Below are positions 51,086-51,774 of a stretch of DNA of 64,000 nt, in pieces. The stretch's first letter is position 1. Every line of letters starts with the position of its first letter. The DNA comes from Alphaproteobacteria bacterium (lineage in GTDB: Bacteria > Pseudomonadota > Alphaproteobacteria > RF32 > CAG-239), in NCBI GenBank assembly GCA_017467515.1, contig JAFUSU010000027.1, forward strand, positions 51,099 to 115,098, given 5' to 3'. Both the position numbers and the translations under genes were made by a program. The notes under the pieces are model-generated. The model was not told where the DNA came from and did no database searches. It saw only the letters and a list, made by a program, of their open reading frames with translations.

Positions 51086-51102
51086 GTTCAAAATAATCCT
51101 TT

Positions 51103-51166
51103 ATATCCTAAAAAAAGAGAGGCGGTAAACCGTCTCTCTATAAATCGGTGGAGCTAAGGAGGATCG
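51103..51166. repeat. Direct duplicate of terminator hairpin + 3' 21 nt of tRNA-Ala (att-like scar)
   Basis: AAAAAAGAGAGGCGGTAAACCGTCTCTCTATAAATCGGTGGAGCTAAGGAGGATCG matches 51352-51407 with one mismatch. Confidence 0.7.
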
Positions 51167-51381
51167 CAGAGCAAAAACAATCCTGTGAATTGTTTTTGCC
51201 GAGATCAGTAGCAGTTGTTAGCTTGCGAGAAGCGACAGCGCACAGAGCAAGCGTTACAACTGGCTTGACCGAAGCGCAGTTATGGCGTGCTTTATAGCAC
51301 ACCATTACGAAGCAAGAGCGAACCTTGGTTCGATCCTCCTTCCTAAAAAAAAGAGAGGCGGTAAACCGTCTCTCTATAAAT

Positions 51382-51457
51382 TGGTGGAGCTAAGGAGGAT
51401 CGAACTCCTGACCTCTTGAATGCCATTCAAGCGCTCTCCCAGCTGAGCTATAACCCC
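51382..51457 (-). tRNA. tRNA-Ala (anticodon GGC)
   Basis: Reverse complement GGGGTTATAGCTCAGCTGGGAGAGCGCTTGAATGGCATTCAAGAGGTCAGGAGTTCGATCCTCCTTAGCTCCACCA: G3:U70 pair, anticodon loop ATGGCAT, encoded CCA. Confidence 0.85.
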
Positions 51458-51774
51458 AAATAAAAAAATAATATATCAGGTCGAGCGTCAAGCGCTTCTT
51501 GCTTGTAAGCTCACTTTGCTCACTAACTGCGCTGCGGTCACTCGTTTTCTAAATTCGCTTTGTTGCGCTACCGCTTCTCGCTCATATAAGAAAACTTCGT
51601 CTGTCGTCATAAAATGACATTTTAAGGTCATTTTATTTTCTCCAGCCCAGCTGAGCTATAACCCCTTTGACATTTTTCTTTTATTATACTCTGTCTGTAA
51701 AATCAAGTATTTTTTGTTGTTTTACCATACCTTTACTTTTTTGAGCCATAATACCTCCCAAAGAAAGGATAAAA

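Follow-up and report, generated by a model that had tools for sequence, protein, structure and literature searches.

The analysed DNA is a 64,000-nt stretch of contig JAFUSU010000027.1 from an alphaproteobacterium, referred to in its whole length as the window. It is ordinary core chromosome that includes rplKAJL, groESL, htpG, typA, dnaE, metK, dnaJ and nagA. Two of its tRNA genes, tRNA-Ala(GGC) and tRNA-Gly(GCC), lie among direct repeats, inverted repeats and displaced tRNA fragments. At tRNA-Ala the window holds two oppositely oriented copies of a small structured element, here named E, and a third copy is present at tRNA-Gly; copy number and presence vary between strains and species. The two tRNA-Ala copies are designated AlaIns1 (downstream) and AlaIns2 (upstream). 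R1 denotes a covariance model built from relatives. The tRNA-Ala locus consists of the following parts.

51101-51145, minus strand: outer (distal) copy of the tRNA-Ala intrinsic terminator, in direct repeat with 51339-51381.
About 51117-51138: hairpin of the outer terminator, with its U-run on the minus strand.
51146-51166, minus strand: displaced 3' 21 nt of tRNA-Ala (T-loop to CCA), with C rather than T as first base.
51161-51319, plus strand (the folding strand): AlaIns1 core, a divergent member (subfamily E') downstream of tRNA-Ala; full-length R1 match, 47.1 bits, E=2.7e-11.
51319-51341, plus strand: AlaIns1 junction hairpin CGAACC-TT-GGTTCG, followed by ATCCTCCTT; turn-back and inverted arm.
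51342-51381, minus strand: inner terminator serving the intact tRNA-Ala; direct repeat.
51382-51457, minus strand: intact tRNA-Ala(GGC), found by ARAGORN and by the Rfam tRNA model (61.1 bits); sequence identical in locus L099.
51458-51494, minus strand: AT-rich spacer of AlaIns2, degenerate arm and short tRNA continuation (AGCGCTTGA / CGCTCGACC), from reading of the sequence.
51495-51647, minus strand (the folding strand, in tRNA sense): AlaIns2 core, a canonical member upstream of tRNA-Ala; R1 133.1 bits, E ~1e-34.
51646-51665, minus strand: displaced tRNA-Ala positions 1-20, the target duplication of AlaIns2; 20/20 match to 51438-51457.

The repeats claimed in the original prediction are real. 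The direct repeat (51110-51166 versus 51346-51402) spans 57 nt at 98% identity and a spacing of 236 bp, and by eye it reaches to about 51101/51339 (~64-66 nt) across a 1-nt indel in an A-run. It is made of the intrinsic terminator and the 3' 21 nt of tRNA-Ala; the outer and inner terminators are identical at 40/42 positions. Within the inverted repeats, 51225-51242 pairs with 51564-51581 and 51266-51282 with 51524-51540, where 0.07-0.17 such matches are expected per window by chance. The plus-strand T-arm piece described earlier was recovered as a 14-nt perfect inverted match between 51328-51341 (GTTCGATCCTCCTT) and 51392-51405. A second copy of the tRNA 5' end was also found (20 nt, 100% identity to 51438-51457), although its position is 51646-51665 rather than 51647-51670 as first given. 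Local GC content is elevated as had been stated, at 0.45-0.52 versus a background of 0.27-0.40, and the suggested likeness to the GC-rich patch near tRNA-Gly is correct, as the same architecture and a homologous element occur there. This resemblance is the key to explaining the repeats at tRNA-Ala. The parts of the tRNA-Gly locus are listed below.

30006-30061, minus strand: outer terminator and displaced 3' 10 nt of tRNA-Gly; 56-nt direct repeat with 30433-30488, 96% identity.
30059-30217, plus strand: canonical element copy at tRNA-Gly(GCC); R1 158.6 bits, E ~1e-41.
30218-30408: two more GC-rich inserts in the same tRNA-Gly pseudo-copy, as read by eye, with tRNA pieces GCAATGGGATTT and GTGAACCCAC between.
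30409-30438, plus strand: degenerate arm of 30 nt, an inverted copy of the tRNA-Gly 3' end in sense orientation; inverted repeat.
30479-30553, minus strand: intact tRNA-Gly(GCC), found by ARAGORN and Rfam.

The two inserts at tRNA-Ala and the one at tRNA-Gly align over ~155 nt. With three homologous copies in the window, the inverted repeats at tRNA-Ala can be recognized as two E cores in opposite orientation, and the blocks that pair are merely the best-conserved parts of two ~155-nt elements. The AlaIns1 and AlaIns2 cores are identical at 111/153 positions (73%), compared with a mean of 92 and a maximum of 103 for shuffled sequences. The repeats bracketing the tRNA are not arms of a segment that could be inverted or excised; each belongs to a separate copy of one small element, and none of the strain contigs showed an excised or inverted allele. 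At tRNA-Gly an inverted repeat of 47 nt (79% complementary) spans the terminator. The two additional GC-rich inserts at that locus have no relatives among the collected loci and are unrelated to E. Elsewhere in the window, a sequence inside an open reading frame (ORF) at 22166-22231 on the minus strand weakly and incompletely matches the 3' part of E (a P4-like hairpin and GAGCCAGAC; E=0.17), probably by chance.

Insertion of a tRNA-specific, non-autonomous, structured element probably explains the repeats. If E inserts at tRNA genes, the direct repeats are target (tRNA-end) duplications, the inverted repeats are E cores, and the stray T-arm is a turn-back arm. The tRNA is left intact beside every E insertion. 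For AlaIns2, an empty site was found in a related species (locus L099, NagA 76% identical). There, the 5' end of a tRNA-Ala identical to that of the window abuts sequence corresponding to that beyond the outer 20-nt fragment of the window, and the flank beyond 51646-51665 is homologous to sequence directly upstream of the intact tRNA in L099. Relative to this site the insertion amounts to 208 bp including the 20-bp duplication, which begins exactly at tRNA position 1; the spacer segment 51458-51494 is missing from the empty site. An ortholog of AlaIns2 occurs in a closer relative (L098, NagA 88% identical).

AlaIns2 lies in sense orientation between the native upstream region of tRNA-Ala and the intact tRNA. 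The displaced fragment 51646-51665 adjoins this upstream region, in which TATAAT is present at 51684-51689 on the minus strand, and the sole promoter-like match of a scan spans 51701-51672. The inserted spacer contains an extended -10-like sequence, TGaTATATT. Either tRNA-Ala may be transcribed through E, or the spacer may provide a putative new -10 element. An AT-rich spacer and a (C)TCGACC motif are common to AlaIns2 and to 5'-side copies at tRNA-Ala(CGC) (L010 and L086).

On the downstream side, the covariance model sets the AlaIns1 boundary after ...AAGGAGG (51162), which corresponds to tRNA position 60/76. At the other end (51319-51341) there is a brief antisense continuation of the tRNA and then a sense-oriented inverted arm comprising T-loop, T-stem and the start of the acceptor stem. 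This arrangement of junction hairpin and arm recurs in most of the other 3'-side copies examined.

E is ~160 nt long and forms four helices, three of which were formally tested and show very strong covariation. Read along the folding strand (E->), the order is P1 enclosing hairpin H1, P2 enclosing a variable P3, the conserved linker CGAGUGACCGCAGCG, hairpin P4 and the tail GAGCCAGAAG. The P1/H1 internal loop is conserved (GAGGA / AACGAC), and the P2 strands are GUUUUGU / ACAAAAC. In an alignment fitted to the covariance model, 95.4% of cells pair, versus 74% in shuffles and 37-48% with slid partners. Both sides change in 19 of the 21 pairs (237 cells), and none of 500 shuffles reached the observed values. 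P4 has the same hairpin architecture, built from very different sequences, in nearly all of 35 folded copies.

The predicted folding is strand-specific. The E-> strand is the more stable in 33 of 34 copies and in each of three domains, and P2/P3 contain 52 G-U pairs on this strand versus 13 on the opposite one; at one closing pair, 54 sequences have G-U and 9 have A-U. Strand-asymmetric folding together with conserved G-U pairs indicates that E would act as a functional single strand, with RNA likelier than single-stranded DNA (ssDNA). The two ends of E (GGCTGGAGG... and ...GAGCCAGAAG) have only CTGG/CCAG in common and are not terminal inverted repeats. Hairpins are instead subterminal, ~10 nt from each end. 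No ORF occurs in the elements, and none of at least 60 aa of recombinase kind was found in 51100-51700. At the gathering thresholds of Rfam release 15, tRNA alone passes in the window; under permissive E-values, the best non-tRNA match in 50950-51800 reaches 22.5 bits versus a threshold of 43. E has no Rfam match to IS605-orfB, HEARO or Intron_gpI.

The junctions of E follow a common plan. In the E-> reading the 5' end is nearly always preceded by a G-run of the target strand, and 25 of 29 copies have a left flank that ends in GG. What precedes E is tRNA sequence that reaches as far as a tRNA end, and after E the same tRNA resumes 2-4 nt further on. With tRNA sequence on both sides, E can be said to interrupt a tRNA, on either strand. 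The interrupted copy is a fragment, and an intact copy of the same tRNA adjoins it; all E-associated tRNA genes encode CCA. The commonest break point is tRNA position 60/61, where T-loop and T-stem meet (Val, Lys, Arg, Ala). In Leu and Gly the acceptor stem is broken, in the upstream insertions at tRNA-Ala the D-loop (position 20), and in Pro the anticodon loop (37/38). Target duplications are 7 to ~65 bp long, and at several loci their ends coincide with mature tRNA ends.

Between 5 and 10 nt past E, the sequence turns back through a loop of 2-4 nt into an inverted and usually decayed tRNA-end arm. This is followed by a terminator (3'-side insertions) or by an AT-rich spacer (5'-side insertions), and then by the intact tRNA. 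Most 3'-side units carry the short turn-back hairpin or arm and the terminator; tRNA genes without an insertion have no arm. Mismatches between arm and displaced tRNA fragment (5 A-C versus 2 G-T) are too few for interpretation. At the outermost informative units (L001, L008, L060, L083 and L084) the outer flank is not the source from which the terminator beside the intact tRNA was copied. Thus, the unit brings its own terminator. In units of this type the duplication can begin exactly at the CCA end.

R1 identified 73 matches in 52 sources, in addition to finding the three copies in the window. We also scanned one genome per species, for 185,579 species, with a 17-mer from E, which yielded 89 loci. 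True copies are nearly all in metagenome-assembled genomes of gut or rumen Alphaproteobacteria (the CAG:495 group, Scatocola, 'Azospirillum sp.' bins, and RUG/RGIG bins); the other 17-mer matches are random ones in high-GC genomes. Practically every copy lies ~60-130 nt or less from a tRNA gene or in an array beside one. At least 15 tRNA species are involved: Val, Leu (2 isoacceptors), Lys (2), Gly (2), Ala (2), Pro (2), Arg (3), Glu, Asp, Thr and Phe. Tandem arrays were found in L057, L074, L005 and L072, with 2-4 units per array (e.g., L057). Searches of IMG/VR viral contigs with three E core motifs returned 0 matches, and E was not found in a plasmid database. One match came from a phage database, in an unverified virome scaffold of chromosomal appearance (radC, then tRNA-Pro). 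The family is apparently undescribed, as no account of it was found in Rfam or in the searched literature. The latter covered tRNA-targeting miniature elements, tandem inversion duplication, RF32 genomes and insertion sites in tRNA loops, and nothing there describes E.

Other small insertions were identified beside those of E. Two further non-coding families, E2 and E3, occur on the same scaffold of tRNA pseudo-copy, arm and terminator (L057 3136-3232; L008, L013, L014 and L086; and L009 and L011 downstream of tRNA-Pro(GGG)). Beside tRNA-Thr in L088 (2212-2458), an E copy has a nested insertion of ~120 nt in its variable P3.

Comparison of strains had been suggested as a check, and the tRNA-Ala locus did prove to be polymorphic. 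Contigs with NagA identical to that of the window (L090 and L092) carry two tandem 236-bp AlaIns1 units, the window carries one, and a third contig is gapped there. L099, the locus with the empty AlaIns2 site, has an AlaIns1-type copy (1003-1163) whose terminator is different yet locally duplicated. Orthologous copies differ by compensatory changes, in P4 between the window and L099 and in H1 between the window and L036.

No mobilizing partner was recognized. The original prediction had pointed to tyrosine or serine recombinases, but none occurs in or adjoining the elements, and none appears among the families listed for the neighbors of copies in 47 other loci. Genes near both window loci are for housekeeping functions and include no mobility gene (the neighbors of tRNA-Ala are a membrane protein, NagA, BOF and MetK). 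Among 145 ORFs within 2.5 kb of other copies, no family is common to more than three, and the 25 families listed for these ORFs include no integrase, transposase or reverse transcriptase. Neither was an autonomous relative seen: all true core-motif matches are short elements, and there is no longer, ORF-bearing one.

Several candidates were considered and rejected. L021 contains a tandemly duplicated 1.5-kb unit (1120-4060) that includes a tRNA-Asp 3' end, terminator, arm, an oppositely oriented E copy, and an uncharacterized ORF (316 or 331 aa) that has a promoter-like site of its own. These 'cargo' ORFs have no Pfam family, and the region has the look of a local tandem duplication. An IS110 transposase gene is near nagA in L102 (5674-6155; NagA 70% identical), but the E model finds nothing there. 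The variable region was considered as a target guide resembling a bridge RNA, but the P3 sequences of copies that share a tRNA-Val site are unrelated.

How E moves is addressed by a tentative model, which we favor over the others but hold to be possible rather than probable. E would spread by copy-in through a single-stranded intermediate, either complementary DNA (cDNA) of an RNA or ssDNA. Microhomology and template switching (a 'U-turn') would link the intermediate to tRNA sequence, with enzymes supplied in trans. This is favored by the strand-specific folding, the G-run at the junction, the 2-4-nt loss, the snap-back arm and the variable duplications, as well as by duplication ends that coincide with mature tRNA ends at several loci and by the terminator that closes the E->-sense unit at its 3' end. 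A more specific form, for which the odds are somewhat poorer, is a bacterial retro-type or single-strand tRNA 'hitch-hiker'. Its small structured RNA, or the cDNA of this RNA, would be copied in by target or tRNA priming with two template switches, again by enzymes acting in trans. Such mobility, akin to that of short interspersed nuclear elements or retroplasmids, is not known from bacteria. Two such switches would automatically rebuild an intact tRNA and leave a pseudo-tRNA with an inverted arm. The chance that the mechanism of mobility is categorically new is of similar size, and substantial.

A number of points weigh against E as a mobile element or against its copying through a single strand. 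The covariation was counted on an alignment already fitted to the covariance model, and the invariance of the linker motif partly reflects ascertainment, as the linker was the search pattern. The tRNA-Gly locus is invariant among strains. The difference between one and two units at tRNA-Ala, the sole recent change observed, could be ordinary unequal crossing-over of 64-bp repeats. Compensatory changes between orthologous copies could reflect selection for a host function in place rather than mobility. No enzyme was identified, no extrachromosomal or excised form was seen, and for copies in the common 3'-side orientation promoter searches gave no convincing candidate on the E-> strand. Finally, a selected pairing of the arm with the displaced tRNA fragment proved unsupported: the arms bear no sign of such selection, and their role is inferred.

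The alternative that survives best, improbable as we judge it, is that the units are classical remnants with att flanks, or else 'naked attP' satellites resembling cis-mobilizable elements (CIMEs), that a tyrosine integrase encoded elsewhere inserts and excises by conservative recombination inside the tRNA identity block. The direct repeats do consist of tRNA 3' ends, units of ~210-250 bp are of attP-like size, the outermost units have their own terminator, and tandem arrays exist. The breaks at E (T-loop, anticodon loop and acceptor end) coincide with the sublocations that tRNA-targeting integrases reportedly use (Williams 2002). The earlier att-like reading of the locus retains its core, insertion footprints that are targeted to a tRNA gene, but neither an integrase-bearing island nor any excision or inversion was seen. 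There is no integrase in or near any unit, and the occurrence of one core at at least 15 tRNAs, at several positions and on either strand, is unlike one-site specificity. As the tRNA is contiguous on both sides of the element with 2-4 nt missing, the junctions are non-conservative, which also argues against the proposed substrate for site-specific recombination. RNA-like covariation, strand asymmetry and conserved G-U pairs would be unexpected for double-stranded, protein-binding arms.

A little less credible is derivation of E from IS200/IS605, as in the palindrome-associated transposable elements (PATEs). E would then have a left-end hairpin and a right end encoding the scaffold of a TnpB- or IscB-type guide RNA; TnpA supplied in trans would move the ssDNA, and flanking tRNA sequence would serve as the guide. 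Strand specificity, the lack of terminal inverted repeats and hairpins ~10 nt from the ends are as expected of such an element, as is insertion immediately 3' of a short motif (only ...GG) on either target strand. Constraint at the RNA level would explain the conserved G-U pairs, and the right-end sequence departs from that of the intact tRNA after 5-10 nt, which would prevent self-targeting. Set against this are the missing Rfam match to IS605-orfB or HEARO and the true linker-motif matches from the scan of 185,579 species, which are all short, none of them being the terminus of some longer element with an ORF. The sequence of the hairpin stems varies freely, and insertion by TnpA makes no target duplication or inverted arm, both of which are present at E.

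It is very unlikely that E is an immobile, locally duplicated family of host small-RNA genes or a cis-acting leader or trailer structure of tRNA operons, kept for a cellular function. The maintenance of structure by compensatory changes between apparently orthologous copies would fit such a role, as would the stability of the tRNA-Gly locus among strains. The sense orientation of AlaIns2 between the tRNA-Ala upstream region and the tRNA means that it may be transcribed within the tRNA precursor. However, E occurs in both orientations and on either side of tRNAs, always interrupts a tRNA pseudo-copy, differs in presence between related species and forms arrays of three or more copies, and the unrelated small elements E2 and E3 use the same scaffold. 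An origin of the repeats without any element, by plain local duplication or by slippage during replication of a hairpin-rich tRNA locus, is scarcely tenable even though the number of 236-bp units differs between strains and terminator palindromes favor template switching, as the 160-nt core occurs at dozens of unrelated tRNA loci in many species and the empty site shows 208 bp of foreign sequence inserted.

Other repeats were identified in the window. Three tandem paralogues of ~200 aa that resemble type IV pilins are encoded at 22741-24880; the first two units are 92-95% identical in DNA, and the first matches the Pfam families PilS and Bundlin. Between rplA and rplJ (26311-26619) are two 99-nt direct repeats (96%) and a partial third, each with the hairpin AAACCTCTTAAGC...GCTTAAGAGGTTT. 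Immediately downstream of rlmN (11940-12296) are three tandem copies of a 119-nt repeat (98% and 66% identity). Downstream of typA/bipA (39783-41742), repeats of 120-170 nt form a complex pattern with spacings of 513-838 nt (families D3 and D5-D7). A 40-nt repeat (family D12) is found twice, 119 nt apart, at 45807-45965, just upstream of and overlapping the dnaE start.

If E is a tRNA-specific insertion element, it represents a widespread, protein-less, structured mobile family specialized on tRNA genes in abundant, uncultured Alphaproteobacteria of the human and ruminant gut. It would also be a new conserved RNA or ssDNA structure with strong covariation, and would explain assembly breaks at tRNA loci in E-bearing genomes. 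In this species and its relatives, metagenome contigs often stop or are interrupted by N-gaps exactly at E or the tRNA repeats (the ends of L095 and L098, and a gap in L091), which suggests that these elements fragment assemblies. Upstream insertions, placed between a tRNA and its native upstream region, may affect tRNA expression. The enzyme, once found, could reveal a new way to write DNA beside essential genes without damage.

E fails a defining feature of each known system that could be tested, and the way it inserts, with a G-run at the junction, a small deletion, a turn-back arm, a terminator of its own and a tRNA that is always restored, fits no characterized pathway of transposition or integration. 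Unlike a group I intron in a tRNA, E resides in truncated pseudo-copies, mostly antisense and mostly at the T-loop, and has no Intron_gpI match. Tandem inversion duplications are similar in that most 3'-side loci consist of an intact tRNA and terminator, an inverted partial copy and a direct partial copy, with junctions at the terminator hairpin and at a short snap-back hairpin. At the E loci, however, this pattern is always coupled to an E insertion, and in the distal copy only. Purely local copy-back was rejected as a full explanation: since the inner terminator is not a local copy of the outer flank at the five informative outermost loci, it cannot account for all of them.

Integrative elements of tRNA genes and CIMEs share with E the insertion at a tRNA gene, duplication of a tRNA end that keeps the tRNA intact, tandem accretion and break positions. 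They differ in that E lacks a nearby integrase, has one core at 15 or more tRNAs, where it occurs on either strand and at the 5' or the 3' gene end, and is embedded in contiguous tRNA with 2-4 nt lost, with RNA-like covariation and an inverted arm. Like MITEs (miniature transposable elements with inverted repeats) and PATEs, E is small, non-coding, multi-copy, hairpin-rich and presumably mobilized in trans. It resembles PATEs also in being strand-specific and in having no terminal inverted repeats, whereas a classical MITE requires these and a target-site duplication of fixed length. Unlike MITEs and PATEs, in which the duplication is of fixed length or absent, E has duplications of 7 to ~65 bp; its targets are exclusively tRNAs, with an inverted target arm, no autonomous relative was found, and its copies differ by compensatory changes rather than neutral decay.

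By analogy, E may also be compared with recombination sites that fold as single strands, integron attC and CTX-phi attP, where structure is kept while sequence varies, folding is strand-specific and tandem arrays form; in single-stranded form, a duplex that imitates the target site could be rebuilt from the inverted arm and the tRNA end. The parallel would be limited by targets that are tRNAs rather than attI or dif, by a large bulge in place of a terminal loop, and by the fact that no IntI- or Xer-type sites were recognized. Compared with retroelements that use target priming or template switching, such as short and long interspersed nuclear elements (SINEs and LINEs), E has no linked reverse transcriptase and no A-tail. 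To our knowledge, there is no description of non-LTR-type (long terminal repeat) retrotransposition of a small RNA from bacteria. SINE and LINE insertions have variable duplications and 5' inversions, and variants of the Mauriceville retroplasmid reportedly capture tRNA sequences. E may be likened to these elements in its variable duplications, small deletions, GG microhomology and snap-back inversions, in the duplication boundaries at mature tRNA ends (several loci), and in its structured core with G-U pairs.

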